This document shows positions 11,178 to 31,351 of a DNA stretch of 64,000 bases, in pieces. The position numbers and the translations under genes were made by a program. Source of the stretch: Bacillota bacterium (GTDB taxonomy: Bacteria; Bacillota_I; Bacilli_A; RF39; UBA660); the NCBI GenBank assembly GCA_015059335.1, contig SVAP01000001.1:66244-130243 (forward strand), in the 5' to 3' direction. The notes under the pieces were generated by a model. The model did not search any database and was not told where the DNA came from. It saw only the letters and a program-made list of their open reading frames with translations. Within the stretch, counting starts at the first letter, position 1. Every line of letters starts with the position of its first letter.

Positions 11178-11423
11178 ATGTTAGAGGGAATTATTTATTT
11201 AATATTCTTTGGAATTGGACTATATTGTGGTCTTAAACTTGAATTTAAAGACAAAGATAAATTTATTGATGATATTGTTGATGAAGTTGTTGATGAAACA
11301 GTAACTGAAATATTTGAATCTAAAAATACTAGTCAAGAACAAACAGAAGGTACACAATATCCTAATGAGTTAACTCCAGAAATTATAGATGAATGGATGA
11401 ATGGTGCAGGTGATAATAAATGA
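11178..11423 (+). CDS. small hypothetical protein (TM helix plus acidic tail)
   Basis: SD aaggtggtga; lies between terL and portal. Confidence 0.4.
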   Translation: MLEGIIYLIFFGIGLYCGLKLEFKDKDKFIDDIVDEVVDETVTEIFESKNTSQEQTEGTQYPNELTPEIIDEWMNGAGDNK

Positions 11424-13207: not shown

Positions 13208-13990
13208 ATGGAAAACGAATTAATTGGAAGCGGAAAAGAGTTGGAAGTCGCTGAACCAACAACAGAAGTAACAGATGATGTTACTGAAAATCCTGGTGAA
13301 GAACAAGGTGAAGATGGTCTTGTCTTAACTGATGATTCATCAGAGGAAGAATCTGAAAGTGATGATGGTGAAAAGAAAGAAAAAACACCTCAGTCAAAAG
13401 AAGATAATTCTAAATATGCCGAAGCTAGAAGAAAAGCTGAAAAAGAGGCAGAAATAAAAATTAAGGAAGCCTATGAAAAAGGAAAACTTGAGGCTTATAT
13501 TGGAAAAATTAATCCTTATACAAATGAAGAGATTAAAGATATCCAAGATGTTGAAACATACGAGACAATGTTTCAAATATCACAAGCTGGAAAGGATCCT
13601 ATTCAAGACTATCCGAAAGCAGTCGCTGATAAGAGAAGAGTTGATTATGAAAAAGAACTTAAAGATAAAGAAATTAAAGAAAAAGTTCAAAAGGAAGTCG
13701 AAGACTTTAAAAATAAATATCCTAGTATCAACTTAAATCAATTATTAGCAGACAAGAACTTTAACGATTATATGGATGGAAAACAAAAACCATTAGTTGA
13801 AGTTTATGAATCATTTGAAAATCTAAAAAAATCTTTTAGAAATGATGCAATAGAAGATGCTAAAAAGACTATTTCTAATGCGCATAGTTCACCAGGTAGT
13901 TTAAATGGTGGAACTGAAATTAAGTACGATTATGCAACTATGTCTAGTGCTGACTTTCAAAAAGAGGTTGATAAAGTATTAAGCCAATAA
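13208..13990 (+). CDS. putative scaffolding protein
   Basis: very acidic N-terminus, K/E-rich coiled coil, directly upstream of the capsid gene; SD aaggagga. Confidence 0.6.
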   Translation: MENELIGSGKELEVAEPTTEVTDDVTENPGEEQGEDGLVLTDDSSEEESESDDGEKKEKTPQSKEDNSKYAEARRKAEKEAEIKIKEAYEKGKLEAYIGKINPYTNEEIKDIQDVETYETMFQISQAGKDPIQDYPKAVADKRRVDYEKELKDKEIKEKVQKEVEDFKNKYPSINLNQLLADKNFNDYMDGKQKPLVEVYESFENLKKSFRNDAIEDAKKTISNAHSSPGSLNGGTEIKYDYATMSSADFQKEVDKVLSQ

Positions 13991-14008
13991 TGAAAGGGAA
14001 GTGATAGT

Positions 14009-14947
14009 ATGCCTAATACTCAAACAATTACAACTTTAACAGTTGAAAATCAAACATTTTATGATAGAGCTTTGTTAGAAAGATTATTACCTGAATTACA
14101 TTTTTATAATGATGGTAAAAAGAAAAAAGTTCCTAAAGGAAAAGGAACAAAAATTGAATGGAGAAAATTTGCTTCATTAGCAATTCCAGAACAAGCATTA
14201 ACTGAAGGTACTACTCCAAATGGTAGTTCTTTAAGTATTACATCATTGGTTGCTGAATTAAGTCAATATGGTGACTTTGTTGAAATCTCTGATGTATTAG
14301 ATATGCAATCTAAAGATCCAGTTATTACTGAAACATCACAATTATTAGGTGAACAAGCTGCATTACTTGTTGACACTAAAATAAGAGATGTTGTTACTGC
14401 TGGAACAAATGTAAGATTTGTTGGTGGTAAAACTGGTCGTTCTGAATTAACTGCTGCTGATGTTTTAACTGGTGAAGAAGTTAAAAAAGCAGTAAGAGAT
14501 TTAAGAAAAAATAATGCAAAAACATTTGCAGATGGATATTTCCATGCTGTAATCAGTCCAGAACAAGCATATGACTTAATGAGTGATACTGCTGATGGTG
14601 GATGGATTGATGCCAATAAATACACTGATAATAAGAAATTATTAAAAGGTGAAATTGGTGAATATGCTGGTGTAAGATTTATGACATCAAGCAACACTGC
14701 TACTGGAACTGGTGCTAGTGATGCAACAGTACATTTAGGAGTTATTTATGGTAAAGACTCTTATGGTGTTCCAGAAATTGGTGAAGGGTCAGCTGCAAAA
14801 CCATCTATTATAGTAAAAGCACAAGGTAGTGCTGGAACTGCAGACCCATTAAATCAAAGAAGTACAATTGGATGGAAAAACTTCTTTGAATCTAAAATAT
14901 TAGAACAAAATGCTATTGTAAGAATTGAAACAGGAATATCTGCATAA
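14009..14947 (+). CDS. major capsid protein
   Basis: 312 aa; position after scaffold; G/T/A-rich composition typical of capsid proteins. Confidence 0.6.
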   Translation: MPNTQTITTLTVENQTFYDRALLERLLPELHFYNDGKKKKVPKGKGTKIEWRKFASLAIPEQALTEGTTPNGSSLSITSLVAELSQYGDFVEISDVLDMQSKDPVITETSQLLGEQAALLVDTKIRDVVTAGTNVRFVGGKTGRSELTAADVLTGEEVKKAVRDLRKNNAKTFADGYFHAVISPEQAYDLMSDTADGGWIDANKYTDNKKLLKGEIGEYAGVRFMTSSNTATGTGASDATVHLGVIYGKDSYGVPEIGEGSAAKPSIIVKAQGSAGTADPLNQRSTIGWKNFFESKILEQNAIVRIETGISA

Positions 14948-14990
14948 GGTATTCCTTTTCTAATTCTAAAATAATGAGAGGAAGAGATTT

Positions 14991-15272
14991 ATGAGTAAAG
15001 TAGAAACTAATATTGATAATAATGAAAATCAAACAAAACCTGTTGAACCAGTAAAACCTGAACCAACAAAACCTGTTGAAAAAGAATATGATTTTGTTAA
15101 AAGATTAAAAAAGGATATGGTAGAAATTAAAATACCTGTTGATCCTATGAATAAACATTTAAAAACAGAAGATGTTTATATCAATGGTTATCGTTGGACT
15201 ATTGAAAAAGGTAAAACAGTAAAAGTACCAAGAGCAGTAAAAGAAGTATTAGAAAATGCTGGTATTATCTAG
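14991..15272 (+). CDS. hypothetical virion protein (Pro-rich linker KPVEPVKPEPTKPVEKE)
   Basis: 93 aa; SD gaggaaga. Confidence 0.4.
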   Translation: MSKVETNIDNNENQTKPVEPVKPEPTKPVEKEYDFVKRLKKDMVEIKIPVDPMNKHLKTEDVYINGYRWTIEKGKTVKVPRAVKEVLENAGII

Positions 15273-15335
15273 CATTTTTTTATCAAGTTAAGAGTATTAT
15301 GGTGGTGCAACTCCACTAAACTTGTCTAGGAGGAA

Positions 15336-15914
15336 ATGTTTATGAGATATGGAGATATATTACTTAGTGCATTAAGAAAAATGTTTTTAAATAAAGGAAA
15401 TATTAAAATTGAGGAATTAGAAACTTTAAAAAATGATAAAAACTATAAAACATACTTAGATGGAATCCACAATGTTGTTAATGAATGTATTGATAAACTT
15501 TTAGAAGTTAAACCATACATACAATATACCGAAGTTACTGACAAATACGATTTAACTGATGATGAAGATTTCAAATCTGTTTATGATTTATTTGATGAAA
15601 AAGGAAATAGAAAACAATATCACGTTGAGGGTGAAACAATACTAAGAATACACGATGCAGAAGAAAATGAAGTTTATACTATGTATTATGAATCTTATTA
15701 TTATGTAACTGAAAGAACTACACCAACAACAAAGTTACCATTAGCAAGAGAACTATGTAATTTAATACCTCTATATTTAGCAGGTGAACTATATAAGGAT
15801 GATGATATTGCACTTGCTACAACATATATGAATGAGTTCGAAGCAGGACTTGATGGATTAAAAGGTCATGCTCCAGAACAAAAATCTATTAAAGATGTAT
15901 TTGGAGTGTTTTAA
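15336..15914 (+). CDS. putative head-tail adaptor/structural protein
   Basis: 192 aa; position; SD ctaggagga. Confidence 0.4.
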   Translation: MFMRYGDILLSALRKMFLNKGNIKIEELETLKNDKNYKTYLDGIHNVVNECIDKLLEVKPYIQYTEVTDKYDLTDDEDFKSVYDLFDEKGNRKQYHVEGETILRIHDAEENEVYTMYYESYYYVTERTTPTTKLPLARELCNLIPLYLAGELYKDDDIALATTYMNEFEAGLDGLKGHAPEQKSIKDVFGVF

Positions 15915-17686
15915 TGAAATATCCTATGCCAAAAAGTTCTAAATTATTAGTTATTAATGATTTTAAAGGTGTAGATTTTACAAGTTCAAGTGTTGATAAA
16001 AAAAGAAGTGGTAATGCTTATAATGTTATAAATAATAATGGTTATATTGAATCAAGACCAAGTTATGAATTATTAAAAAAAATAGGCAATAAAATAAATG
16101 GTTCATGGAATGTTGATACTAAATCTGGTGACTATTTTTTAATTCATAGCGGAACTAAATTATATCAGGTAACTAGTGATTTTTCATCATATGTTGAAGT
16201 ATGTAGTAATTTAAATGATGTTAAATCAACAGGACAATATATAAATGGTTATTTAATAATTATAGATGGAAAGAGAAATATTATATTTGGTAACTTTGGT
16301 AATAGTTATGAAGCCAGATATTTAGATGAATGTGGTACGATTCCCATAACAACTATTGGCATGAGTCCAAGTGGTGGTGGTAAATCTTATCAACCTATTA
16401 ATATGGCTAGTAAGTATAGAATTAATATGATTAGAGGTACTGCAGAAGATACAGTTTATAATTTAAATGATACAAATTTAGATGATAATAGTGATGTTTT
16501 AATTCAATTGTTGACTTTAGATGGATGGGAAGTCTTAGATAGTAGTGAATATACTGTTGATTATGTAAATGGTAAGGTTACATTTAAAATTGCTCCCGGA
16601 GAAACCCCTCTTAATGAAGAAGATAATGTTAGCATTAGATATTGTAAAACTAATACTGAATATCTAGATATATTAAATAATTGCACAATATCAACAGTAT
16701 TCGGTTACAACGGAAATGATGATAGAATTTTTATTACAGGAAATAAAAATTTTAAAAATATGGTATGGTATAGTTATTCAAATGACGTAACATATTTTCC
16801 AGATATAAATTATATTCAAGTAGGTCAAGAAGAAATTAATAACTTTACTAGAATTAATAGTGGTAAATTAGGAATACAAAAACCAAAATCAGATTCAGAC
16901 AGCACTATCTATTATTTAGAAAGTGCTATTTTTAATAATGAAGAAGTATTCCCATTAACTGCTGGAGTTAAAACAATAGGATGTATTGGAAAATATGCTA
17001 ATTCTAATTTAGTTAATGATCCTTTAACTTTAACAGAACAAGGTGTCTTTGCAATAGTTTCTTCTGATAACGAAAAATTTGCAATGTTAAGAAGTTATTA
17101 TGTTAATGGTAAATTATTAAAAGAAAAAAACTTAGAAGAAGCAGTTGCAATTAGTTTTAAAGGAAAATATTATTTAGCTATTAATAATAATGTGTATATA
17201 GCTGATAGCAGATTTAAAAGTTATGCTAAAAATAGTCAAACAGAAGATTACCAATATGAATGGTATTTTTGGAAAGATATACCTGTTAGGGTATGGTTTA
17301 TATTTAATAATGAACTTTACTTTGGTACTGAAACAGGTGATATATGTAAAATAAACGATGTTCAAAATAACGAAGATAATTTCGAATCGTATTTTGAAAC
17401 TCCACCACTTAGTTTAGATAGTACTGTTTTAAATAAGACTATTAAAAAAGTAGGATTAATTTACAAAAATAATAGTGAATTTGAATTTGGATATATTACA
17501 CCTGATGGTGAAGAAAAAATTATTGATTTAAAAAGTGGTGAAACAGATTTTCCTGTTGTTATTTTAGAAAAGGAAAAAATAAGAAAATTCTTATATATTA
17601 AATTTTTTGTTAGAAGTAAGAAAAGACTTACTTTAGAACAGTTAAATGTGGAATATGTATATAGTGGAAGATACAAAGGAGAGTGA
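15914..17686 (+). CDS. putative tail/structural protein (590 aa)
   Basis: ATGA coupling; beta-rich N/T/S/Y-rich sequence. Confidence 0.45.
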   Translation: MKYPMPKSSKLLVINDFKGVDFTSSSVDKKRSGNAYNVINNNGYIESRPSYELLKKIGNKINGSWNVDTKSGDYFLIHSGTKLYQVTSDFSSYVEVCSNLNDVKSTGQYINGYLIIIDGKRNIIFGNFGNSYEARYLDECGTIPITTIGMSPSGGGKSYQPINMASKYRINMIRGTAEDTVYNLNDTNLDDNSDVLIQLLTLDGWEVLDSSEYTVDYVNGKVTFKIAPGETPLNEEDNVSIRYCKTNTEYLDILNNCTISTVFGYNGNDDRIFITGNKNFKNMVWYSYSNDVTYFPDINYIQVGQEEINNFTRINSGKLGIQKPKSDSDSTIYYLESAIFNNEEVFPLTAGVKTIGCIGKYANSNLVNDPLTLTEQGVFAIVSSDNEKFAMLRSYYVNGKLLKEKNLEEAVAISFKGKYYLAINNNVYIADSRFKSYAKNSQTEDYQYEWYFWKDIPVRVWFIFNNELYFGTETGDICKINDVQNNEDNFESYFETPPLSLDSTVLNKTIKKVGLIYKNNSEFEFGYITPDGEEKIIDLKSGETDFPVVILEKEKIRKFLYIKFFVRSKKRLTLEQLNVEYVYSGRYKGE

Positions 17687-17691
17687 TTATA

Positions 17692-18642: not shown

Positions 18643-18652
18643 TGGTGATTAA

Positions 18653-21600
18653 ATGAGTAAATCAGATTTGGATTTAATATTAAGTGGAAATTATAAACCA
18701 TCATTTAAAACAAAACAAAGTAGTGCCAAGACTAATGATTTAAATAAAATTTTAAGTGGTACATATAAGCCAGAATTTAATAAAAATGATTATACTAACA
18801 TAACTAAAACAAATTACTCAAAAACTCAAAATAACAATAATAAATCTTTTGACTTTTCAGTTAATGAAAAGCTTTCCAAACAATCACTAATAAATGAGTA
18901 TAAGGATTTACAGAAGCAACTTGCAAATTATGATAGAAAAGAAAAAACAAAATGGTGGGATTCCGATAAAAATATATTGGAAAACTCAGGTAACGTACTT
19001 TATAAATTATTTGTAGAAGACCAAGATAATAAATATAAAAATGATGAAGAATATAATGAATTATTAAACAGATATAAAAGTATTAAAAAACAAATAACAG
19101 ATGAAACTGTAAAAGAAGAAAGTAAAGACCTTAGCAATACAGAAAAAATTGGATATACTCTTATGGGTAATTTAGAAACAAGTTTAAAAGGTATTGAAAG
19201 TACTGTTCAAAAATTTACAGGACAAAATCGTGATAATTCAGAATTATCATTTGGTGAGAGAATGGCACAAGAATCAATTGATCAATCATCTGGTGCAGGT
19301 AAAGTCGGATTAAACATATTAGGTTCTACTGCAAGAATGATACCACAAGTGGCAGCAGGAAGTCCTGTAGGTGCTAAACTTATTGGTTTTGCTAATTATG
19401 GTGGAAGTGCATATAACGAAGCAAAAAGAGACGGATATGATGAAGATAAAGCAACAAAATATGGTGTTGTAGTTGGTTCCTTAGAAACTGGTTTAGAATC
19501 ACTATTAGGTGGTTTTGAAAGTATATATGGGAAAAGCATAGGTGGAAAATTAACAAATAAAGTAATGAAAAACATTGTTAAAAATGATACCTTTAGAAAA
19601 ACTGTAAGTGGAATTTCAGGTGAATTTACTGAAGAATATTTACAAGAATTTCTTAACCCCATTGTTAAAAATATAGTATTAGAAGAAGAAAATGGTGCAG
19701 ATTTCTGGAATACAATGCAAAAAGATTTTAAGCAAGGTGTAAAACAACTATCTTCACAACTATTTAATTCCCAAAATCTATATTCAGGTATGATGGGTGC
19801 TATGACATCTGGTGTTATTAGTGGTATAAATAATCTTTCAACTGCAACTAATAATAGAACACAACCAAATAATGTAAAAAACAATATAATATCAACCCAA
19901 AACATAACAGATAATACAAATAATAGTTTGGAAGCAAAAATGTCTGAAAATGTCTTAAATCAAGTTCAAAACAATATAAATAATTATCAATATCAAAAAA
20001 GTAATAATATTAAAATAGATAATTTAAGAAAAAGTGCAAGTACCTATTTTGATAATAGTACCGAAACTAAGAATTTAATAAATACTTATGAAAAAATTAT
20101 TACTGATAAAAATTATAATGTTATATTTGATAATACATTAACCAATAATAGTGGTAATATTGTTGATGCAAAAATAAGTACATTAGATAATGGTGAAACT
20201 GAAATAAGAATTAACCCCAACTCAACTAGAGCTGGGGAGTTTTTGATTATGCATGAAGTAACTCATGCCATTGAAACAGATGAAATCAAAAATTTAGTTA
20301 TAGACTATGCTTCTAAAAATAGTGAGTTTAATAACGCATTAGAAAGTTTAAAACAAACATATAATACTTCTGATGTTTCTAGTGAGGTATTAGCTGATAT
20401 TTCGGGTCAATTATTTGGTAACCAAGAATTTATAAATGAATTATCTATACAAAAACCTAATGTATTTACAAGAATATATAATAAAATAATTGAATTAGCA
20501 AATAAGATAACTGGTAATTCAAAGGAAAGTTTATTTCTTAAAGATTTAAAAAACAAATGGGAAAATGCCTATAGAACACAAAACAATATCCTAAATGATA
20601 GTAAATATATGATGACAGGCGTAAAAGGTTTAAAGAACGCAATCAAAAGTAGTGCTGATAATCAATGGTTATATAATAATTATAACAAGTCTAAAATTTT
20701 GAGAACAAAAGGTTATGATAATAATATCATTAGACAAAAAACAGGATGGTTTATTGGAACAGATGGTAAAGAAAGATTTGAAATCAGCGATAATGAAGCA
20801 CAAATTAATGGAAACGTTAAAAAGAATGCCAAATATAAATTAGATGAAATACTGAATCATGATGACTTATATGAATTATATCCTAAATTAAGAAATTCTA
20901 AAATCATATTTAAAGATATTAAAAATTATAATAATAAGGTGGTTGCAGGTCAATATAATCCACTTACTAACTCAATAGAATTAAATAATAAACTATTGGA
21001 CATGAATAACTCTCTAGATAAAGTTAAAAATACATTATTACATGAAATTCAACATAATATTCAAAAAATAGAGAAATTCAATAAAGGTTCTGCTGGAAAC
21101 AAAGGTATAGCTGAATATATTAATAATGCAGGTGAAATAGAAGCGCGTGATACAGAAAAAAGAAGTAAGTTATCATATGCGGAAAGGTTAAATTCTCGAC
21201 CAAAATCCATGAAAACATCAACTAGTAATATTGATAATAAAACAAATATATTATATAATCTTGGTAAGAGAAAGGACATTGATATTGATGAAAATATTAA
21301 AGAAAATTCTTCAAAAAATAAAAGAGATGTTCATAACAGAAAGATGCCTAGTGATAGAGGAGGACGAGAACTAAATAATAGTTCTTTTTCTTTACCGTCA
21401 AATGAAGATAGTAAATGGCAAGAGCATTTAGAAAGTAATTATAAATCATCAGGAACCAGAACAGATATGAGTAATATCAAAAGCAATAGTTTTATGAAAA
21501 AAAGTATATCAAAAGGAAATTTGCTATACGATATAGATGAAGGTATAATAAAAAGAACTGACAGGAAGCTACAATTGCGACCAACCAGTTCAACTGCTAA

Positions 21601-24600
21601 CAATATACAACAATCTAACAATATTGTCAAATCTAATACATTACCTAATTATTCTATGCAAGAAAATATAAATAATTCACAAGAACTAGAAAGTAGTTCT
21701 TTTTCTTTAACGTCAGATGAAGATAATAATGCTACAAATGAAATACCTAAAGATCCAACTAAAGAAGAAAGTTATAATTATGTTGATAACTACAATGTTG
21801 AAATAAATAATATTAAAAATATGTTATCAAAATATACTTCTTTGGAACGTAGTGAGTTAATTAGCGAAAAAACATATGATTCAATTAATAGTGAATTAAG
21901 AAGATTAGGCAAAGGTTTAGATGATAAAACAATTGATAATTTAACTAATAAAATATTTAAAAATCTTATTGATGGTAAGGATATTAAGAATATAACAAAT
22001 ACTGTGTATAACTTTATCAATAATCCTAGAAAAGCTAAAATTAATGAATATAGAAAACTTGCTTCTAATATGATAGATGATATTGTAGATTGGAATGATA
22101 AAAAAATAGGCCTTTCATATCAAACAGAAACGATGAAAAGAAATTTGTATGATATTATTCCAGATAAAAATAAAGCTAAACAGGTATATGAAACTTATTT
22201 TCAAACAATATCAGAAAACGAGGCAACTGCTAAAAATTTTATAAATGAATATAATGATAAAATCAAGAAATTAGATTTAAATAATAAGGAATCTATCGCA
22301 GTTCAAATGTATGGAGAATATAAATATAATCCAGAAACTACATTAACGGGATTACAAGTTTATGAATATATAGAAAAAAATAATCTTGATTTGAACAAAA
22401 TCAAAAATTCAGTTGAAGTATTTAGAGATACTTATGATGAACTTATAAATAAAGTAAATAATGTATTGATAGAACAGGGATATAAACCTATTGAATACAG
22501 AAAAGGATATTTCCCTCATTTTGTTACTGATAAATCTACTTCTATAATAGGTAAGTTTGCTGAAAAACTAGGGTGGAAAATAAAAAAAGAAAATTTACCT
22601 ACTGATATTGCAGGTATGACTGAAATATTTAAACCAGGTAAACGTTGGACTTCTTTTTCTCAACAAAGAACAGGAGATTCAACTGATTATAATGCTTTAA
22701 AAGGTTTTGATACTTATATTAGAGGCGCTGCTGATTTAATATATCATACAGAAGATATTCAAAAATTAAGAGCATTAGAAAATGAAATAAGATATCAATA
22801 TGCCTCTGACACTATTAAAAAAGAAATAGATGAAATAAATAAAGATAGTGATTTAGATACTCAAGAAAAGCAAGAAGAAATAGATAAGATATTTGATAGA
22901 TTTAATAATCAAATGCCTAACTTTGTTACCGAAATAAGAAGATATACTGATGGTCTAGCTAATAAAAAAGCAATAGATGATAGAAATATGGAACATAAAT
23001 TGAATAGAGAAATATATTCAGTCATGACAAATATTCAAAATCGTGTTAGTGCTAATATGGTCGGATTAAATGTATCTTCTGCATTGACAAACTTTATACC
23101 AATTACGCAAGGTTATTCACAAATAAGTACCAAGAATATGTTAAAAGCTATTAAGGATACTATTAGTAATCAAGTTAACAATGATGGATTTGAGAATAGT
23201 TCAACATTCTTAACCAATAGACTTAAAAATCCTGATAATTTATATAAAACTGGATTAGATAAATTTAATGATAAAGCATCTTTCTTATTTGAAGGAATTG
23301 ATAGTATTACGTCAAATATTCTGGTTAGAGGAAAATATTACGATAATGTAAGTAATGGTATCTCGGAGACAGAAGCGATTAAAAATGCCGATGAATTTGC
23401 TAAAGATGTTATGGCTGGTCGTAGTAAGGGTGAAATGCCTACTATTTACAATGAAAAGAATCCGATAACAAAATTATTAACCTCTTTTCAATTGGAAGTT
23501 AAAAACCAATATGGATATATGTTTAAGGATATCCCTCGTGATTTAAAAGATAAGGGCATGAAAACACTAGTTAGTGCCTTTATGAAAATGTATTTAGGAG
23601 CATGGTTATACAATAAGTTTGCCGAGTCATTGACTGGTAGAAAGAGTGCTTTTTCACCTGTTGACATAGTTGAAGAAACACTTTCTGCTGCTACAAACAA
23701 GAATTTATCTACTTATGACAAATTAGAAAACATTACAACAAATGCACTTCAAGAAGTTCCTTATATTGGTGGTATTCTTGGTGGTGGTAGATTACCTATT
23801 AATTCTGCTATTCCTGATGTTAAAACTTTTGAATATTTTGTTAATTCATTTAGTGATGATAAGGATAAAAAGAAAACTGCTATTAATAATTTGAGAAAGG
23901 AACTAACTAAACCTTTTATGTATATTGTAATGCCTGTTGGTGGTGGTCAAATTAAAAAGACTGTCGAAGGCTTATCAATGTATTCTAAAGATAAAGATAT
24001 AAAAGGTAGTTATACAACATCTGGTGACTTAAGGTTTCCAGTTAAGGAAGATATTTTAAGTAAAACCCAAGCAGCACTATTTGGTCAATATTCAAGTAAA
24101 GAGGCAAGAGAATATTTTGATAGAGGCGAAAAACCTTTAACAGAAAATCAAATTGAGGATTATAAAAATCTTAATGTTCCTATAACAAAATATTGGAAAT
24201 ATAGAAGTGATTTAAGGGAAATTAATAAAATTAAATCAGATAAAGATGAAAATGGTAAATCAATAAGTGGAAGTGCTAGTGGTAAAAAAGCATATGAAAT
24301 TATGAATAATAATTTATATTCTAAAAAAGAAAAGAATTATTTGTTAAGTCAGTTATCAAGTAGTGATAAAGATGAAACAATAGAATCATTAAAAATACTT
24401 GATAATGATAAAGAAGTATATAAATACTATTTTGGTTTAAATACGAAAGGAAGAGAAAATTTTGTAAGTGCTATAAATGATTATGATTTTAGTGCTAAAG
24501 ATTTGTATGATTTTAATACTAGTATTGATAAAGAAGATTCTACTAGAAAAAAAATTACTGTTACTAATTATCTTAAAAATAGTAATTTAAGCGACAAACA

Positions 24601-25018
24601 AATTGCTTATCTATATGAAAAGAGTGGATATTCTAGTGAAGAAAAATTAGATGTATTATTAAACTCTAATATATCACTAAAATCATTTATTGATTTACAA
24701 TTAAGAATAACAGATATTAAGGGTGATACTGATACAAAGAGTGGTGTAGTAGGTAAAACTATATCTGGAAGCAAAAAGAAAAAAGTACTAAAAGAAATTA
24801 ACGAAACAAAAGGTCTTTCAAAAGAACAGAAACTTCTAACTACTTATTTGTTAGGTTATTCTGTTTCTACTGGTGATTTTTCTGGTTATACTACCGATTC
24901 TTCTAGGAAGATAGTATTTGATTATGTTAATAAGTTAAGGTTATCCACAACAGAAAAACGTGATATCTTGGAACAAGCAGGATACAAAATTTATAAAAAT
25001 GGCAGAATAGGTTGGTGA
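18653..25018 (+). CDS. giant virion protein (2,121 aa): tape-measure-like or ejection/polyvalent protein with two zincin-like HExxH motifs
   Basis: Gly-rich hydrophobic TMP-like segment GAGKVGLNILGSTARMIPQVAAGSPVGAKLIGFANYGG; motifs FLIMHEVTHAIE and LLHEIQHNIQ...GEIEARD (gluzincin-like); SD gtggtgatt. Confidence 0.55.
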   Translation: MSKSDLDLILSGNYKPSFKTKQSSAKTNDLNKILSGTYKPEFNKNDYTNITKTNYSKTQNNNNKSFDFSVNEKLSKQSLINEYKDLQKQLANYDRKEKTKWWDSDKNILENSGNVLYKLFVEDQDNKYKNDEEYNELLNRYKSIKKQITDETVKEESKDLSNTEKIGYTLMGNLETSLKGIESTVQKFTGQNRDNSELSFGERMAQESIDQSSGAGKVGLNILGSTARMIPQVAAGSPVGAKLIGFANYGGSAYNEAKRDGYDEDKATKYGVVVGSLETGLESLLGGFESIYGKSIGGKLTNKVMKNIVKNDTFRKTVSGISGEFTEEYLQEFLNPIVKNIVLEEENGADFWNTMQKDFKQGVKQLSSQLFNSQNLYSGMMGAMTSGVISGINNLSTATNNRTQPNNVKNNIISTQNITDNTNNSLEAKMSENVLNQVQNNINNYQYQKSNNIKIDNLRKSASTYFDNSTETKNLINTYEKIITDKNYNVIFDNTLTNNSGNIVDAKISTLDNGETEIRINPNSTRAGEFLIMHEVTHAIETDEIKNLVIDYASKNSEFNNALESLKQTYNTSDVSSEVLADISGQLFGNQEFINELSIQKPNVFTRIYNKIIELANKITGNSKESLFLKDLKNKWENAYRTQNNILNDSKYMMTGVKGLKNAIKSSADNQWLYNNYNKSKILRTKGYDNNIIRQKTGWFIGTDGKERFEISDNEAQINGNVKKNAKYKLDEILNHDDLYELYPKLRNSKIIFKDIKNYNNKVVAGQYNPLTNSIELNNKLLDMNNSLDKVKNTLLHEIQHNIQKIEKFNKGSAGNKGIAEYINNAGEIEARDTEKRSKLSYAERLNSRPKSMKTSTSNIDNKTNILYNLGKRKDIDIDENIKENSSKNKRDVHNRKMPSDRGGRELNNSSFSLPSNEDSKWQEHLESNYKSSGTRTDMSNIKSNSFMKKSISKGNLLYDIDEGIIKRTDRKLQLRPTSSTANNIQQSNNIVKSNTLPNYSMQENINNSQELESSSFSLTSDEDNNATNEIPKDPTKEESYNYVDNYNVEINNIKNMLSKYTSLERSELISEKTYDSINSELRRLGKGLDDKTIDNLTNKIFKNLIDGKDIKNITNTVYNFINNPRKAKINEYRKLASNMIDDIVDWNDKKIGLSYQTETMKRNLYDIIPDKNKAKQVYETYFQTISENEATAKNFINEYNDKIKKLDLNNKESIAVQMYGEYKYNPETTLTGLQVYEYIEKNNLDLNKIKNSVEVFRDTYDELINKVNNVLIEQGYKPIEYRKGYFPHFVTDKSTSIIGKFAEKLGWKIKKENLPTDIAGMTEIFKPGKRWTSFSQQRTGDSTDYNALKGFDTYIRGAADLIYHTEDIQKLRALENEIRYQYASDTIKKEIDEINKDSDLDTQEKQEEIDKIFDRFNNQMPNFVTEIRRYTDGLANKKAIDDRNMEHKLNREIYSVMTNIQNRVSANMVGLNVSSALTNFIPITQGYSQISTKNMLKAIKDTISNQVNNDGFENSSTFLTNRLKNPDNLYKTGLDKFNDKASFLFEGIDSITSNILVRGKYYDNVSNGISETEAIKNADEFAKDVMAGRSKGEMPTIYNEKNPITKLLTSFQLEVKNQYGYMFKDIPRDLKDKGMKTLVSAFMKMYLGAWLYNKFAESLTGRKSAFSPVDIVEETLSAATNKNLSTYDKLENITTNALQEVPYIGGILGGGRLPINSAIPDVKTFEYFVNSFSDDKDKKKTAINNLRKELTKPFMYIVMPVGGGQIKKTVEGLSMYSKDKDIKGSYTTSGDLRFPVKEDILSKTQAALFGQYSSKEAREYFDRGEKPLTENQIEDYKNLNVPITKYWKYRSDLREINKIKSDKDENGKSISGSASGKKAYEIMNNNLYSKKEKNYLLSQLSSSDKDETIESLKILDNDKEVYKYYFGLNTKGRENFVSAINDYDFSAKDLYDFNTSIDKEDSTRKKITVTNYLKNSNLSDKQIAYLYEKSGYSSEEKLDVLLNSNISLKSFIDLQLRITDIKGDTDTKSGVVGKTISGSKKKKVLKEINETKGLSKEQKLLTTYLLGYSVSTGDFSGYTTDSSRKIVFDYVNKLRLSTTEKRDILEQAGYKIYKNGRIGW

Positions 25019-25022
25019 TGTA

Positions 25023-27185
25023 ATGTACAATCAAGCTAAATATGATAATGAACATGTTACTTTAGGTCAGTTAAAGGAAAGTATTACTGAAGTAGAGGAA
25101 ACAATACCTGATTCAAGTGAGTATTCTAAAAACTTTGGTTTAACACCTAAACCACCATATTCTGTTGGAGATACTTGGACAGATGATGGAAGAGTATATA
25201 AATGTGTAAAAGAGCGCCTATATGGCGCTTTTTCTATTTCTGATTGGCAATTGGTTGCTACTGATGATTCTAGTTTTAATCAATTTGTGGAAAATGTTTA
25301 TACTGCATATGAATTATCTATTCCTAATCAGTCAGATGGAAAGATAGAATCATTTTATCAAGATTCAGATCCTAGTGCAGAATGGGATACTGATGTTCTT
25401 AAGGAAATTCATAATGGTGATTTATGGTACTCTAATTCTTCTGGAGTACAGAGAAGATATACTAAAAAGAATACAAATCCTGTGTCTTATTCTTGGGATA
25501 TTGTTTCAGTACCTATGGTTCTATTTAATCTTGTTGATGGTCACAAAAATATTTTTGTTATAAAACCTAGTGAATATTCTAAAGATGATTATTGGGTAAT
25601 AGATACTGAAGAAGATATTCCTAGTGACTGCCAAATTGGCGAGATAGTAATTGCTATTAATGATTCTAATATATATAACAAAGATGACTTTATTAAAAAA
25701 GATTTAAAGACAATAAAGGTTAGTGCTATAGAGGATGAGTACTACAACAAAGAGGAAATTAACATTAAGACTAGTGAATTAGAAAAATATACTGAAACAA
25801 AAATACAACAAGCAAAAGATGAAATTAGTTTAGAAGTGTTATCCACAATAAAACCAGAAATTATTACTATTAAACAAGTTGATGAAGTTCTAAAATTAGA
25901 AAATACTCCTAATAGTAAAGGAGCTATCAAAAAATTATCTATTAAAGGGATTCCTATTATTCCTTTATATCCAGGTATGGCTTATCCTACTCCTTATACA
26001 TATCCTGGGGCATATAATCACTATAATTTGATTTTTAGTAATGATGAGTCATTTAATTCCTATGAGGAACTTGATATTGAAAGTCCTATAATTTTACGCG
26101 CAATTAATATTGATGATGTCATTATTTCTGATGAACTTTTGATTTATGAAAACTATGTGTCAATTGTTCAAAATGTTGGTTATGACAATTATGGTAATTG
26201 TGTTAGTTTAGATGACCCTATTATTCATGAATTAAAAGATATTCTTGTACCTACCTATGATGGTGGAACGTATATTAAACTTAAACATATTAATGTTAAT
26301 GTTGAATTTAATTGTGAATATATTAAGAAAAATGAATTAAGTGATATTTTCACTACTGAAATCGAAACAAGAGCAGCTATTAATATATCAGATCAAAATA
26401 TTAAATCTAAGGTTTCTAGAGGAAATATCATAAGTGAAATTAATCAAAGTCCTGAGTTAATAAAAATAATTGCTGAAAGGATTATGCTTGAGGGTATTGT
26501 TACCGCTAATAATAATTTTAAAGTGTTATTAGATGGTTCAATAGAAGCAAAGAATGGACGTTTTTTTGGGAATGTATATTTACCATCTGGTGGACAAGTA
26601 ATTGGTGGAGATGGTCTTTTAACTAACCTACAATATGAAACAGGACAAGATTTTGAAAGATTAGGATTTACTTATCATTATACTTTAGATAAGTATGTTG
26701 CTAATACTTTACCGTTAAGTGTTTATATACCAGATAATTTTAAGATAAAAGAGGCTAAGGTTACTTTATTCCATATGCCACAACGTATTAATATGACTAC
26801 TATTGACGGTGTGTTAACAGAGTGGTGCTATTCTAGGAATATAAAATTGTATAAAGTTGATTTGACAAATATCTTATGGGATGGATGGGTTGATAGTGAA
26901 TTTTATATGGATGAAAGTAGCAAAATGACAGAAATTATTGAGGCTTTTGGTAAAAATGGGTATACACCACCAATTCCTAGTAATAGTGATTATTCTACTA
27001 AAACTATTGTTTCAGGGGATATAAAGAATTATCTAAAATCTGGTATGAATAATTTGGCATTAAAATGTGATTATGAAGTAAATGATTCTGCTGGTGTGTT
27101 AGAATCATTTATTTCTTATAAGTACTCTGGAAGAGTAATTGCGTTTTTAGACATAGTTGGATATATGTCTACAGAAGAGGAGTGA
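25023..27185 (+). CDS. putative tail fibre/baseplate structural protein (720 aa)
   Basis: position after giant protein; no enzymatic motifs seen. Confidence 0.45.
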   Translation: MYNQAKYDNEHVTLGQLKESITEVEETIPDSSEYSKNFGLTPKPPYSVGDTWTDDGRVYKCVKERLYGAFSISDWQLVATDDSSFNQFVENVYTAYELSIPNQSDGKIESFYQDSDPSAEWDTDVLKEIHNGDLWYSNSSGVQRRYTKKNTNPVSYSWDIVSVPMVLFNLVDGHKNIFVIKPSEYSKDDYWVIDTEEDIPSDCQIGEIVIAINDSNIYNKDDFIKKDLKTIKVSAIEDEYYNKEEINIKTSELEKYTETKIQQAKDEISLEVLSTIKPEIITIKQVDEVLKLENTPNSKGAIKKLSIKGIPIIPLYPGMAYPTPYTYPGAYNHYNLIFSNDESFNSYEELDIESPIILRAINIDDVIISDELLIYENYVSIVQNVGYDNYGNCVSLDDPIIHELKDILVPTYDGGTYIKLKHINVNVEFNCEYIKKNELSDIFTTEIETRAAINISDQNIKSKVSRGNIISEINQSPELIKIIAERIMLEGIVTANNNFKVLLDGSIEAKNGRFFGNVYLPSGGQVIGGDGLLTNLQYETGQDFERLGFTYHYTLDKYVANTLPLSVYIPDNFKIKEAKVTLFHMPQRINMTTIDGVLTEWCYSRNIKLYKVDLTNILWDGWVDSEFYMDESSKMTEIIEAFGKNGYTPPIPSNSDYSTKTIVSGDIKNYLKSGMNNLALKCDYEVNDSAGVLESFISYKYSGRVIAFLDIVGYMSTEEE

Positions 27186-27189
27186 TGAT

Positions 27190-27855
27190 ATGAGTATAGA
27201 TAAATTAAATCTTAAATTTGTTAATTATCAAGGACCAATAATGGATGATATTTTAATGACAAAAATAACTGATAAAATTGATGAGGTTGTTGATGGTGTT
27301 AATAACTGTGATGGTGGAGGAGGAACTGGCGGAAGTTCTGGAAACGAAGTAGTAATAGGAGACGAATCAAAAATAACAGAAGATACAAAGATATTTATAG
27401 ATCCTAATGAAGTATTACCACAAGGGAATGATGTAGTAGATAGTTTAGAGGGTAATGAAACAGATAAAGCGCCTAGTGTAAAAGCAGTTAAAGAGGGATT
27501 AAAAGATGTGTATTCAACAGAAGAACAAGTAATTGGTATATGGAAAGATGGTAAACCGTTATATAAAAAAGTGTTTGATATACCAACAACATTAGATGAT
27601 TCACATTGGTCTTTTTTAGATATACGTTCTATAAATATAGAAACATTAACAGATTTAACTGGAAAAGTAAATGTTACAAGTGATGTAGGAACTAAAATTC
27701 AACCTATACCTCGTGTTGTAATTGATGCTATTTCTCAATATGGTATTGGATATGGAGATATAGACGCTAATAGGATTGGTATTCAGTATGGAAGTGCTTA
27801 CACAAAAATAAATAGTGGTTTTATAACGCTAATATACACAAAAACAACTGATTAG
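27190..27855 (+). CDS. tail fibre protein with Gly-rich hinge and C-terminal module shared with the next gene
   Basis: DGGGGTGGSSGN hinge; C-terminal KDVYSTEEQVIGIWKDGKPLYKKVFD...ITLIYTKTTD paralogous to the C-terminus of the following ORF; SD gaggagtgatgat. Confidence 0.5.
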   Translation: MSIDKLNLKFVNYQGPIMDDILMTKITDKIDEVVDGVNNCDGGGGTGGSSGNEVVIGDESKITEDTKIFIDPNEVLPQGNDVVDSLEGNETDKAPSVKAVKEGLKDVYSTEEQVIGIWKDGKPLYKKVFDIPTTLDDSHWSFLDIRSINIETLTDLTGKVNVTSDVGTKIQPIPRVVIDAISQYGIGYGDIDANRIGIQYGSAYTKINSGFITLIYTKTTD

Positions 27856-27867
27856 GTGGTGAAATAA

Positions 27868-28827
27868 ATGAAATATAAAGATGAAAATGGAAATTGGATA
27901 GATATACACGTTAAAGCAATAGATAATGAACCTTTAGCATGTACTAAAATCTATTTTGGAACAACAGAACCAAATGGATATAAATTTGCCAATGGACAAG
28001 AATTATCAAGAACTGAATATGCAGAACTATTTAAAGTAATTGGAACTAATTATGGTTCAGGTGATGGAAGTACAACATTTAATCTTCCTAATATGAATGG
28101 CAGAGTACCAGTAGGATTAAACGTAAATCAAGAGTGGTTTAATACTTTAGGAAAAACAGGTGGTAGCACAGAATTACAAGAACATAGTCATATTCAAACA
28201 GTTGGTGGATTTCCGTCGGTTGATGGGAACGCTAATGGCTCTACAGAAGCGTATGGATATAGAATAACAAGTTTGGATGTTGAAACTTCAAAAGTAAATA
28301 TGACACTTCCAACAGGTTCTGGAAACACTGGAAACTTACAACCATATATAACAGTAAATTACATAATAAAAGTTAAAAATCTAGCCACACTACCTCCTAA
28401 TGCTGAATTAATAGATGAAAATGGAACACCAAGTGATACAAATACCTATAATGCTAATGCTATTAATGAGTTAGTGAAAGATGTTTATTCAACAAAAGAA
28501 CAACAAATTGGAACTTGGTTAGGTAAACCATTATATAGAAAAACTCTACAATTTACCGATACAGTAGATTCTGCCACTGCATTAGCAAAACCACATGGGA
28601 TTTCTAATGTAGACACAATTTGGATAGATACAAGCAACAGTTTTTTGAAAAGTGGAAATTCCACTTTTCCACTACCACAAGTTTGTTATTATGGTAGTTT
28701 TACAGATAGAGTAGGTGTACACGTCGACATAGAAAATATTAATATGTATAGTGAAAGTGGTTGGGGTTCTAATTGGCTTAAAATAGTAACATTAAATTAC
28801 ACAAAAACAACTGATGAAGAGGTGTAA
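27868..28827 (+). CDS. phage tail-collar fibre protein
   Basis: tail-collar (microcystin-dependent protein-like) motif YKFANGQELSRTEYAELFKVIGTNYGSGDGSTTFNLPNMNGRVPVG; shares C-terminal module with upstream gene. Confidence 0.65.
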   Translation: MKYKDENGNWIDIHVKAIDNEPLACTKIYFGTTEPNGYKFANGQELSRTEYAELFKVIGTNYGSGDGSTTFNLPNMNGRVPVGLNVNQEWFNTLGKTGGSTELQEHSHIQTVGGFPSVDGNANGSTEAYGYRITSLDVETSKVNMTLPTGSGNTGNLQPYITVNYIIKVKNLATLPPNAELIDENGTPSDTNTYNANAINELVKDVYSTKEQQIGTWLGKPLYRKTLQFTDTVDSATALAKPHGISNVDTIWIDTSNSFLKSGNSTFPLPQVCYYGSFTDRVGVHVDIENINMYSESGWGSNWLKIVTLNYTKTTDEEV

Positions 28828-28828
28828 T

Positions 28829-29047
28829 ATGGATAATACAATAATGACAATATTAGGATTTATAGGTGCAATGATTCCAGTTGTAGCAGTAATAATTAAA
28901 CTAAATACCACTATCACTACATTAAATGTAACAATAGAACAATTAAATAAACAAATGAAAAATAGTCAATCTGATAGAAAAGATATACATGACCAATTAA
29001 ACGATCATGAAACAAGAATAACTATTTTAGAAAAAGATAGGGATTAA
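28829..29047 (+). CDS. small TM plus coiled-coil protein (XhlA/holin-associated-like)
   Basis: N-terminal TM helix, C-terminal coiled coil ...NDHETRITILEKDRD; SD gaggtg. Confidence 0.35.
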   Translation: MDNTIMTILGFIGAMIPVVAVIIKLNTTITTLNVTIEQLNKQMKNSQSDRKDIHDQLNDHETRITILEKDRD

Positions 29048-29094
29048 AGACACTATTAATTAGTGTCTTTTCTTATTAGAAAGGGTGATTAATA

Positions 29095-29469
29095 ATGTTC
29101 AAGATAGTAAATAAGGAAATACATTTAACTAGAGGAGATATAGCATGTATAGAAGTAAAAGCAACAAATGAAGATGGTACAGACTATACTTTTAAAGTGG
29201 GGGATGTAGTTAGATTAAAAGTATTCAAGAAAAAAGATTGTGGATGTGTAGAACTACAAAAAGATGTAGAAATAACAGAAGAAAGTACAAGTGTAGATAT
29301 AAATTTAGATGGCACAGAAACAAAAATAGGTGAAGTAATAAATAAACCTACTACTCTATGGTACGAAATAGAATTGAATCCTGAAACAAGTCCACAAACA
29401 ATTATAGGATACGATGAAGAGGGTGAAAAAATCTTTGTTTTATATCCAGAAGGGAACGATAAACTATGA
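29095..29469 (+). CDS. hypothetical tail-associated protein
   Basis: 124 aa; SD aagggtga. Confidence 0.4.
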   Translation: MFKIVNKEIHLTRGDIACIEVKATNEDGTDYTFKVGDVVRLKVFKKKDCGCVELQKDVEITEESTSVDINLDGTETKIGEVINKPTTLWYEIELNPETSPQTIIGYDEEGEKIFVLYPEGNDKL

Positions 29470-31336: not shown

Positions 31337-31351
31337 AAAGGAGAATAAAAT

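Follow-up and report, generated by a model that had tools for sequence, protein, structure and literature searches.

A podovirus-type morphogenesis module with a giant phage-type polyvalent protein, probably from a prophage of a low-GC gut Firmicute

What kind of particle is encoded by a head-and-tail gene block in which one gene alone takes up 6,366 nt, and what could the product of that gene do? The block spans positions 13208–29047 of the window, which is the whole 64,000-nt stretch of DNA analysed here. All genes lie on the + strand in the ORF layout, and the giant gene makes up 40% of the span (Table 1). The order is portal, scaffold, capsid, ORFs of 93, 192, 590, and 319 aa, and then the giant gene. 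An earlier note had counted four ORFs between the capsid and a 6.4-kb gene, which agrees with the layout. Its sizes of 93, 192, and 590 aa hold, and the fourth, given as 317 aa, is 319 aa from a GTG start or 316 aa in public gene calls. We regard the block as probably the morphogenesis module of a podovirus-type phage with a giant phage-type polyvalent protein, the phage probably being a prophage of a low-GC gut Firmicute.

Table 1 Features of the gene block and the preceding portal gene; coordinates refer to the window
Feature	Position	Strand	Basis
Portal, P22-like, 568 aa	11420..13126	+	Pfam PF16510 P22_portal
Probable scaffold, 260 aa, acidic N-terminus	13208..13990	+	Position between portal and capsid, similarity to Page gp5
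Major capsid protein, N4-gp56 family, 312 aa	14009..14947	+	NCBIfam TIGR04387
93-aa protein, head or connector accessory?	14991..15272	+	phrog_15239
Head-to-tail adaptor, 192 aa (190 aa in public gene calls)	15336..15914	+	Profile match
Predicted tail nozzle/hub, 590 aa, P22 gp10/T7 gp12 fold	15914..17686	+	AlphaFold2 and Foldseek
Q/N-rich protein, 316–319 aa	17683..18642	+	Position
Giant polyvalent protein, 2,121 aa, 242 kDa	18653..25018	+	Pfam LPD23 and SprT-like
Module A, Gly-rich N-terminal, residues 127–396	19031..19840	+	Conservation
Module B, zincin-like 1, residues 440–660, H534-E-V-T-H538 ... E578	19970..20632	+	Motif conservation
LPD23, residues 677–719, start of variable cargo slot	20681..20809	+	Pfam PF18838
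SprT-like zincin 2, residues 762–835, H797-E-I-Q-H801 ... G827-E-I-E-A	20936..21157	+	Pfam PF10263
Module C, all-alpha, residues 1090–1900, ~800 aa	21920..24352	+	Alignment and AlphaFold2
C-terminal tail, residues 1901–2121	24353..25015	+	Aligns in part of the family
Probable tail fibre or spike, 720 aa	25023..27185	+	PHROGs, weak Pfam Gp58
Fibre or receptor-binding protein, 232 aa (221 aa in public calls)	27157..27855	+	Similarity to next product
Tail-collar-domain fibre protein, 319 aa	27868..28827	+	Pfam PF07484, phrog_9116
Coiled-coil protein, 77 aa	28814..29047	+	phrog_1009

The portal matches P22_portal (E 2.9e-11, 43.1 bits, cut-off 26.1) and is 31% identical to the portal of the Bacillus podophage Page. 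The probable scaffold found no match in the family search. Page gp5, which occupies the equivalent genome position, shares 32% identity with its C-terminus. The capsid protein is a clear member of TIGR04387 (E 6.7e-71, 239 bits, cut-off 60), with 41% identity to the proteins of Page, Pony, and Pookie and 33% to that of the Paenibacillus podophage API480.

The 93-aa protein matches only the uncharacterised family phrog_15239 (E 1.7e-8), and its position is kept in some relatives. For the 192-aa protein, 289 homologues were found. A profile built from 45 of them, a search that the earlier note had suggested, matched a single PDB chain, the solved head-to-tail adaptor 9d83_B 'Head to tail adaptor Gp50' (E 1.7e-6). 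Members of this profile match phrog_13046 (40 of 45) and phrog_2125 'virion structural protein' (8 of 45). The 590-aa protein, for which a structure prediction had likewise been proposed, is modelled by AlphaFold2 with a pLDDT of 87.3 and a pTM of 0.85. The top 27 Foldseek matches of this model in the PDB are all podovirus nozzle or hub proteins, P22 gp10 and T7 gp12 included (E 3e-16 to 3e-10, probability 1.0, TM-score up to 0.69). Judged by its predicted fold, the 590-aa protein is a tail nozzle or hub; it shares 28% identity with Page gp15 'virion structural protein'. The Q/N-rich protein (13% Gln) has no family match in Pfam, PHROGs, or NCBIfam and lies directly 5' of the giant gene in relatives too. 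From its position, it is probably an internal, plug or ejection protein.

No tail-tube, sheath, tape-measure (TMP), or chaperone family was matched in Pfam and PHROGs by the ten ORFs of at least 77 aa between 14991 and 29469. In Pfam, the three large ORFs that follow, as far as 32490, gave the same result; two short ORFs at 31352–31798 (72 and 61 aa) lie outside these scans. The module is thus without recognisable sheath, tube, and chaperone genes in the tested ORFs, as the earlier note had it, and the tail-tube or TMP homology that it named as evidence against its reading did not appear there. Its view that the gene order is closer to short-tailed phages is supported by the P22-like portal, the adaptor, and the nozzle fold. 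We base the assignment as podovirus-type on the P22_portal match, the N4-gp56-family capsid, the adaptor profile match, the nozzle fold, and the lack of any tube, sheath, or TMP family match among the tested ORFs. It is also based on the closest cultured relatives. These are the Bacillus megaterium podophages Page, Pony, Pookie, and Palmer (Pagevirus) and Paenibacillus larvae API480; Page and API480 have short tails by electron microscopy. Apart from capsid, portal, scaffold C-terminus, and nozzle, the genes of Page and API480 are unrelated to those here. The nozzle homologue gp15 comes after the tailspike in Page, the G+C content is 41% in both phages but about 27% here, and lysogeny is unmentioned in their papers.

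Downstream of the giant gene, the 720-aa protein matches PHROGs families annotated 'tail protein' or 'minor head protein' at E 2e-9 to 4e-6, with Pfam Gp58 as a further, weak match. Its gene is directly 3' of the giant gene in relatives too. The 319-aa fibre protein matches PF07484 Collar (E 1.9e-19) and phrog_9116 'tail protein' (E 2e-36). Its C-terminus is 31% identical to the C-terminal ~150 aa of the preceding 232-aa protein, which has no family match in Pfam or PHROGs. The 77-aa protein matches the uncharacterised phrog_1009 (E 1.7e-11) and, below the cut-off, DUF7365. Further on, a MazF/PemK-like toxin gene lies directly 3' of the lysis genes.

The giant protein itself is identical to an NCBI protein named 'SprT family zinc-dependent metalloprotease [Firmicutes bacterium]'. 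Its 287 homologues are 1,500–3,000 aa long with variable polyvalent-protein domains. We divide it into five parts: module A, the zincin-like module B, a cargo slot, module C, and a C-terminal tail.

Module A: This region is 40–58% identical in most homologues, with A267, G286, E324, E327, E328, and G382 invariant, and has no Pfam match. Within it, residues 205–300 contain 19% Gly, compared with 5.5% in the whole protein. The earlier note had described a Gly-rich hydrophobic, TMP-like segment. We reject this reading, as the segment belongs to the conserved module A and shows neither a TMP family match nor a transmembrane-like stretch; no 19-residue window of the giant protein reaches transmembrane-like hydrophobicity (Kyte-Doolittle maximum 1.08).

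Module B and SprT-like module: The two HExxH motifs claimed for the 2,121-aa protein are present, HEVTH at residues 534–538 and HEIQH at 797–801, the latter followed by GEIEAR at 827–832. With only 10 His residues in the protein, the chance expectation is ~0.003 HExxH motifs. All 117 aligned homologues, with identities as low as 27%, retain the first motif, and in a diverse alignment the HExxH and a Glu ~40 residues downstream are invariant. The second motif and GEIEA are kept in 72 of 72. Hence, the motifs do not lie in low-complexity or unconserved sequence, a possibility that the earlier note had raised against itself. Individual members of module B match the Pfam peptidases M91, M48, and M78, all below threshold. 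The SprT-like module falls slightly below the cut-off of PF10263 (E 1.9e-5, 24.9 bits, cut-off 25.6). Both modules are best described as zincin-like, putative peptidases, the first without a significant family match and the second sub-cut-off. Zincin-like peptidases are the commonest domain of polyvalent proteins, ~8% of which carry more than one copy, with self-processing as the proposed role (PMC5512222).

Cargo slot: LPD23 is above the Pfam threshold (E 3.3e-11, 43.2 bits, cut-off 27) and fills the slot here together with the SprT-like zincin. In homologues that retain modules A, B, and C, PBECR3, ART-PolyVal with PBECR5, or LPD3 occupies this slot, which separates module B from module C, and LPD38 or MuF_C is found elsewhere in the protein. 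Because of LPD23, the SprT-like zincin, and a slot that varies among homologues, we assign the protein on sequence grounds to the phage-type polyvalent proteins, a known class of giant multi-enzyme proteins described by Iyer, Burroughs, Anand, de Souza & Aravind 2017 (PMC5512222).

Module C and C-terminal tail: Module C has 37 invariant residues in a 51-sequence alignment and is nearly all helix in its AlphaFold2 model (pLDDT 83.9, pTM 0.81). The PDB offers no match by fold (best E 0.26) or profile. By fold, 88 BFVD entries match at E <= 1e-3. They are pieces of viral polyvalent proteins, giants whose names refer to ART, LPD3, methylase, nuclease, and other such domains. Of the folds that the earlier note proposed to look for in the giant protein, the peptidase is represented by the SprT-like signal, and a solved internal-core homologue of module C did not emerge. 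The C-terminal tail aligns in only some of the family and has no family match.

Where does this protein act? Polyvalent proteins as a class are presumed to travel in the capsid and to be delivered along with the DNA. We infer from gene position and analogy that it is packaged in the virion and injected. The evidence is the nozzle–fibre synteny (the gene sits between nozzle side and fibre side, 5' of the lysis genes, also in distant relatives), the LPD23–zincin unit in H66 gp60, and API480 gp16 peptides. The HMM of residues 660–900 (LPD23 and SprT-like zincin) matches gp60 of the Pseudomonas phage H66, a Hollowayvirus and F116-like temperate podophage (E 6e-23, 27% identity over the common unit). 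As with the giant here, the gp60 gene closes the structural module and precedes the lysis genes, and the protein has more than one zincin-like domain, with domain makeup varying between homologues. Its record notes 'verified by mass spectrometry as part', and the adjoining gp64 is noted as a virion part. It differs in its 3,787 aa, an annotated methyltransferase-like region, a PLxRFG domain, and a Gram-negative host. Page gp20 (1,679 aa) and API480 gp16 (1,631 aa) are giant ORFs late in the structural module, as here, and gp16, which holds the analogous position, was identified by 71 peptides from a preparation of the phage. Modules A, B, and C have no similarity detectable with module HMMs to the Page, API480, or H66 giants, and none was detected to solved ejection proteins. 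The experimental precedents thus cover the LPD23–zincin unit only or are positional. The earlier note's injected polyvalent protein is accordingly upheld as to class, and its injection is a matter of gene position and analogy.

Other short-tailed phages offer partial parallels. The tail machines of P22 (gp4-gp10-gp26) and T7 (gp11-gp12) share the P22-like portal, the adaptor, or a nozzle of the same fold with the module here. P22 gp7/gp16/gp20 and T7 gp14/gp15/gp16 are large, mainly helical proteins encoded beside tail genes, packaged in the head and then ejected; they are three separate proteins, whereas the module here encodes a single 242-kDa polyprotein that carries enzyme cargo. N4-like phages (Schitoviridae) share the capsid family. 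The genome of N4 has ~70 kb, compared with contigs of ~35–44 kb for the relatives here. N4-like phages have a 3,500-aa virion RNA polymerase; for the 2,121-aa protein, family searches detected no RNA-polymerase domain. N4 packages and injects a giant protein that bears a zincin-like domain (PMC5512222).

As read from the genes, an N4-gp56-family shell carries the P22-like portal. Adaptor and nozzle rings, in an arrangement that we assume from solved podovirus tails, are predicted to attach to it and form a short tail without tube, sheath, or tape measure, and genes 3' of the giant ORF supply fibres and receptor-binding proteins. Modules A and C form a conserved backbone flanking the zincin-like module and the exchangeable cargo slot. 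Under the proposed mechanism, the giant protein would enter the capsid at a late stage of infection, possibly along with the Q-rich protein encoded upstream, and upon adsorption would be ejected via the nozzle, either before the DNA or together with it. The backbone would serve incorporation and passage, and the zincin modules would either release working pieces by cutting the polyprotein or act against host proteins in the first minutes of infection.

The giant could instead be an external tail part under the nozzle (tail tip, central fibre, or wall-degrading), its zinc proteases acting on the envelope from outside. Its location between nozzle and fibre genes fits this, and Gram-positive podophages often have tail-associated lytic proteins, such as the 'lytic tail fiber protein' and 'zinc carboxypeptidase' of the Page tail module. 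Moreover, the fold match of the nozzle model ranked 28th, next after the nozzle/hub set, is the crAss001 muzzle assembly. We nevertheless think this unlikely, as no peptidoglycan-hydrolase, lysozyme, or carbohydrate-binding family was detected in the protein, its all-alpha module C is unlike any solved fibre or spike, and the homologue cargo (RNase-like PBECR nucleases, ADP-ribosyltransferase) has intracellular targets.

Such cargo families also occur in polymorphic toxins and conflict systems (PMC5512222), and a toxin gene of the MazF/PemK type is encoded just past the lysis genes. A moron-like accessory toxin or conflict gene, expressed in the lysogen or late and absent from the particle, is still less probable. 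Accessory genes usually occupy the edges of modules and lack universal conservation, but the giant is co-oriented within the structural operon, with gaps of 10 and 4 nt to its neighbours, and keeps its exact position in relatives of only 30–50% identity; a signal peptide or transmembrane-like segment was not seen in it. Hardly credible is a long-tailed phage with the giant as an oversized TMP with embedded enzymes and tube and chaperone genes too divergent to recognise. Some TMPs do bear peptidase domains, and Gly-rich residues 205–300 with a mostly helical C-terminal half look superficially TMP-like. However, the nozzle/hub fold of the 590-aa protein occurs only in short tails, the portal is P22-like, and the nearest cultured relatives are short-tailed by electron microscopy. 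No TMP, tube, Dit/Tal, or chaperone family was matched by the scanned ORFs, and only the 93-, 192-, and 319-aa ORFs are left for all absent tail parts.

Regarding the injected polyvalent protein of a short-tailed phage as the preferred reading, the host side can be considered. The window yielded no integrase–repressor module and no att sites. The identical giant protein occurs on contigs of up to 578 kb, and relatives have bacterial genes on their flanks, so that the phage is probably temperate and present as a prophage. The earlier note assumed a clostridial host, which is not established: the closest relatives found are mostly in Bacilli, Erysipelotrichaceae, and 'Tenericutes' MAGs, and the NCBI label reads 'Firmicutes bacterium'. 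It also called such a temperate phage unusual, which does not stand. The Clostridium clostridioforme LM41 prophages phi1 and phi4 are temperate gut-clostridial phages without a tape-measure or sheath gene, form podovirus-like particles by electron microscopy, and have an ~8-kb ORF of nearly 20% of the genome with LPD3-like similarity (PMC11318856). This comparison is with the published description only, and their ORF is at the genome 3' end, unlike here. Among species-representative genomes, module C was confirmed at 166 loci, mostly in Clostridia and Bacilli MAGs, and the lineage is frequent among MAGs of gut Firmicutes.

Portal, scaffold, and capsid genes are followed by four ORFs and then by the giant ORF, whose product is very probably a phage polyvalent protein; this is the layout that the earlier note had read from the sequence alone. 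The 192- and 319-aa ORFs are 190 and 316 aa long in public gene calls. All genes of the structural block lie on the + strand, and the giant ORF accounts for 40% of the flagged span (13208-29047). It is located between the nozzle and fibre genes, with the probable terminase, portal, and capsid gene all upstream. The order portal-scaffold-capsid-adaptor-nozzle-Q-rich protein-giant-fibre is kept in relatives at only 30-60% identity. Tail tube, sheath, tape measure, and frameshifted chaperone gave no match in the ORFs tested (14991-32490) within the reach of Pfam and PHROGs. The absence of sheath, tube, and chaperone genes described in the earlier note is thus upheld for these ORFs, and clear tail-tube or TMP homology, which the note had named as evidence against its reading, was not found in them.

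Features of the phage part, the giant protein, and the adjoining right-hand part (nucleotide positions; residues of the giant protein where indicated)
Feature	Position	Strand	Remarks
HTH_36 protein	1203-1820		replication gene
DnaB-like helicase	1762-2994		replication gene
Tyrosine-recombinase-family ORF	3143-3781		212 aa
Portal	11420-13126	+	
Scaffold	13208-13990	+	
Capsid	14009-14947	+	
Four ORFs	between capsid and giant ORF	+	93, 192, 590, 319 aa
Putative adaptor	15336-15914	+	192 aa
Predicted nozzle	15914-17686	+	590 aa
Q-rich protein	17683-18642	+	319 aa
Giant ORF	18653-25018	+	6,366 nt, 2,121 aa, 242 kDa
Module A	residues about 127-396		Gly-rich segment, 40-58% identity
Module B	residues about 440-660		carries HEVTH (residues 534-538)
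Variable stretch (cargo slot)	residues about 660-1090		here LPD23 plus SprT-like zincin
LPD23 (PF18838)	residues 677-719		
SprT-like	residues 762-804		
HEIQH...GEIEAR	residues 797-832		
Module C	residues about 1090-1870		conserved
C-terminal tail of giant protein			conserved less well
Two fibre genes	27157-27855, 27868-28827		adjoining
Collagen-repeat protein and DUF285 repeat protein	29466-31336		274 aa and 348 aa
Endolysin	31801-32490		PG_binding_1 plus Peptidase_M15
Protein with PemK/MazF-like toxin domain	32585-33409		246-274 aa
tRNA-Trp (CCA)	35162-35235		
HTH_3 regulator	36012-36446	-	plus-strand genes next
DUF6882; HD-domain protein; Listeria-Bacteroides-repeat protein	within 36012-64000	+	
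ADP-ribosylglycohydrolase	42231-43355	+	
N6/N4 DNA methylase	51777-52592	+	
SpaA/thioester-domain adhesin	56333-58795	+	820 aa
TrbL_4 conjugal transfer protein	59482-60774	+	

Five observations speak for a short tail. The portal matches the Pfam family P22_portal (PF16510) with 43.1 bits (cut-off 26.1), and the capsid protein matches the N4-gp56 family of NCBIfam with 239 bits (cut-off 60). Among deposited phages, the closest are podophages of Bacillus megaterium (Page, Pony, and Pookie) and the Paenibacillus podophage API480; identity to the Page/Pony/Pookie group is 41% for the capsid, 31% for the portal, and 28% for the 590-aa protein. Short tails have been seen by electron microscopy in both groups of relatives (Page and API480).

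The 590-aa protein has at least 493 homologues, all unannotated. Its AlphaFold2 model (34 homologues used) reached a pLDDT of 87.3 and a pTM of 0.85, and its 27 best PDB matches in Foldseek are podovirus nozzle or hub proteins without exception (E 3e-16 to 3e-10; TM-score up to 0.69), from cyanophage A4, Pa223, PhiM1, VP1, P22 (gp10), Sf6, T7 (gp12), GP4, SU10, and Pam1. The muzzle of crAss001 comes next, behind these 27. The model thereby predicts a nozzle/hub protein with the gp10/gp12 beta-propeller fold. For the 192-aa protein, 289 homologues were found, and its family profile (45 homologues) has a sole PDB match, 9d83_B, named 'Head to tail adaptor Gp50' by the depositors (E 1.7e-6). It is a putative adaptor encoded beside the nozzle, adaptors as a class not being tied to a single tail type. 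As portal, adaptor, and nozzle are all encoded, the block would follow the short-tail plan of P22 and T7. The short-tailed reading of the earlier note, which had proposed HHpred or structure prediction for the 192-, 590-, and 2,121-aa proteins, is borne out by the P22-like portal, the adaptor profile match, and the nozzle fold.

The similarity to Page is confined to the portal, the C-terminus of the scaffold, the capsid, and the nozzle (28-41% identity), whereas the giant protein and fibres of Pagevirus are unrelated to those of the window phage. Gene content and gene order, compared genome-wide, do not place the phage in the genus Pagevirus.

Module C, a conserved part of the giant protein, was confirmed at 166 loci in a search through prokaryotic genomes, one for each species. 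The 80 loci listed, on contigs of up to 575 kb, belong mostly to Clostridia (Oscillospiraceae, Lachnospiraceae, Acutalibacteraceae, and Christensenellaceae) or to Bacilli, Erysipelotrichaceae, and 'Tenericutes' MAGs. Among 50,697 deposited phage records, a single one, an unannotated faecal contig, contains the module. Hence, the lineage is abundant but uncultured; homologues of the giant protein number in the hundreds in metagenomes. The element is likely a prophage, as contigs with the identical protein reach 578 kb and bacterial genes flank the relatives; a lysogeny module does not lie inside the window. The earlier note had expected an unusual temperate phage of a clostridial host. Neither point is supported: the closest relatives of module C (52-62% identity, among the loci listed) lie mostly in Bacilli-type MAGs, and the window has a G+C content of about 26%. 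Moreover, Clostridium clostridioforme is reported, with support from electron microscopy, to harbour temperate podovirus-like prophages that carry an 8-kb polyvalent-like ORF (PMC11318856), so that such an element is not unusual for gut Firmicutes. What remains of interest are the backbone modules, still uncharacterised, and the cargo slot with its exchangeable content. A large, uncultured prophage lineage of gut Firmicutes is here tied to a concrete virion plan, in which the tail is short and of P22/T7 type and the capsid belongs to the N4 family, and the giant protein is resolved into a conserved backbone with an exchangeable effector slot.

A database search with the giant protein returned 287 homologues, mainly of 1,800-3,000 aa. 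The identical protein in NCBI is named 'SprT family zinc-dependent metalloprotease [Firmicutes bacterium]'. Our analysis puts right the public label 'SprT family metalloprotease' and gives the adaptor and nozzle families, both 'hypothetical' so far, a predicted function. When 219 members of the family were mapped pairwise against the giant protein, the modules A, B, and C and the variable cargo slot between B and C emerged. The two HExxH motifs seen in the earlier note hold up well: the first is retained in 117 of 117 aligned homologues, and the second together with GEIEA in 72 of 72. As the protein has just 10 histidines, two such motifs (about 0.003 expected) are far beyond chance. In module B, the histidines, the catalytic Glu, and E578, about 40 residues downstream, are invariant in diverse alignments. 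HExxH with a downstream Glu is the classic zincin arrangement. Matches of module B to peptidase families were all below threshold, none being significant. In the cargo slot, LPD23 scores 43.2 bits (cut-off 27), and SprT-like reaches 24.9 bits (E 1.9e-5), 0.7 bit below its cut-off of 25.6.

The Gly-rich segment, which had been taken as TMP-like, belongs to the conserved module A. A transmembrane or TMP region was ruled out here by hydrophobicity, with no transmembrane-like stretch along the whole giant protein, and by the absence of TMP family matches. A tape measure is likewise at odds with the family scans, in which the giant protein matched zero PHROGs families and Pfam gave LPD23 and SprT-like alone; tube and chaperone genes were not found. 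Scans of the whole protein and of its segments returned no polymerase family, as would mark an N4-type single-subunit RNA polymerase domain. Against NCBIfam there was no match, including the PLxRFG model from which gp60 of the Pseudomonas phage H66 takes its name. Neither sequence nor fold revealed homology to the solved or catalogued ejection proteins T7 gp14-16 and P22 gp7-16-20. Judged by its sequence, the giant protein carries at least one LPD domain, as the polyvalent class demands (Iyer et al. 2017), and a putative zincin-like hub domain (HExxH plus downstream Glu) in the cargo slot, the SprT-like score being marginally sub-cut-off. Relatives with the same backbone carry a PBECR3 nuclease, ART-PolyVal plus PBECR5, or LPD3 between B and C, and others have LPD38, MuF_C, or ParB in other parts of the polypeptide. 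Differing domains on one backbone are a signature of polyvalent proteins (Iyer et al. 2017). In this class, zincin-like peptidases are the most frequent domain, several copies occur in about 8% of the proteins, and the role proposed for them is autoprocessing once the protein has been packaged or injected (PMC5512222). Thus, the polyvalent protein considered in the earlier note is favored by LPD23 above cut-off, the SprT-like unit, and the varying domains among homologues.

As to where the protein resides, the best reading is that the giant protein would be internal to the virion and ejected, on account of its operon position and kept synteny, the H66 gp60 unit, and the API480 gp16 peptides. 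H66 is a temperate F116-like podophage whose gp60 (3,787 aa), encoded just ahead of the lysis genes, shares the LPD23-zincin unit with the giant protein (27% identity, HMM E 6e-23); its record notes verification by mass spectrometry. API480 gp16, a positional analogue without detectable homology, was abundant in a phage preparation (71 peptides). Because modules A, B, and C resemble no experimentally studied protein, we infer this location by analogy. Homology of the modules to the giants of Page, API480, and H66 was also considered and rejected, as the module HMMs match just the LPD23-zincin unit of H66 gp60. In a bolder reading, to which we give rather little weight, a so far undescribed apparatus for ejection in Gram-positive podophages would have modules A and C at its core and would be synthesized as one self-processing polyprotein. 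Module B, the backbone zincin, would then cleave this polyprotein in the capsid or in the host, the resulting fragments would aid genome passage through the thick cell wall, and the slot between B and C would be a hot-swappable effector bay whose content (nuclease, ADP-ribosyltransferase, or protease) differs from phage to phage.

Module C has 37 invariant residues in an alignment of 51 sequences, and its AlphaFold2 model (pLDDT 83.9, pTM 0.81) is helical almost throughout. The PDB holds no counterpart by fold (best E 0.26) or by profile. Among predicted viral structures, there are 88 matches at E ≤ 1e-3 (TM-score up to 0.75). The best 50 of these are without exception viral proteins that are either uncharacterised or of polyvalent type, almost all of them pieces of longer ones, and their names refer to ART, LPD3, MuF_C, methylase, nuclease, and similar domains. 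Hence, the model indicates that module C is a backbone domain of phage polyvalent proteins that occurs widely and is structurally uncharacterised. As an all-alpha module of about 800 aa that recurs across many viral polyvalent giants without a solved relative, it is a reasonable target for work on how such giants are packaged and delivered. By sequence or profile, no meaningful match to a solved structure was found for the whole giant protein, its family profile, modules B and C, the capsid, the portal, or the nozzle; matches to SMC and 'P22' repeat proteins in the structure searches are compositional or repeat artefacts.

In two related loci, the giant gene looked split, with a 620-aa gene followed by module C as its own 882-aa gene; a real split would have argued that independent ejection proteins had fused to give the giant. 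Close to the end of the 620-aa ORF, the translation reads 'XXXX', and 10 N stand at positions 9794-9803 of one locus (L008; GCA_032063765.1, DAMBOJ010000004.1). Since this run lies inside the giant-gene homologue, the split is a scaffold-gap artefact. Many module C hits of 800-1,400 aa on short contigs may also be fragments, and given gene splitting at N gaps, short database proteins with module C alone call for caution. Untruncated ORFs with module C span 1,358-4,019 aa in the loci from species-representative genomes.

The products of the two adjoining fibre genes are homologous over a C-terminal domain of some 150 aa (31% identity, E 7e-12), which suggests duplicated receptor-binding heads. 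The collagen-repeat and DUF285 repeat proteins, located after the fibre genes and before the endolysin, are probably further components of fibres or adhesins. Directly after the endolysin, the PemK/MazF-like toxin domain forms the C-terminus of a protein with a long N-terminal extension. No antitoxin was identified for it; the related podophage API480 has a MazE/MazF-like pair. The tyrosine-recombinase-family ORF stands beside the replication genes, not at a prophage end, and could be a truncated integrase or an Xer-like resolvase. The right-hand 28 kb (36012-64000) resemble part of a conjugative element, not a phage. Between this region and the end of the phage lysis region lies the tRNA-Trp (CCA) gene, which could be an integration target for the phage or the conjugative-like element. 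In both parts alike, the + strand holds nearly all long ORFs, and GC skew is above 0 in every 2-kb window.
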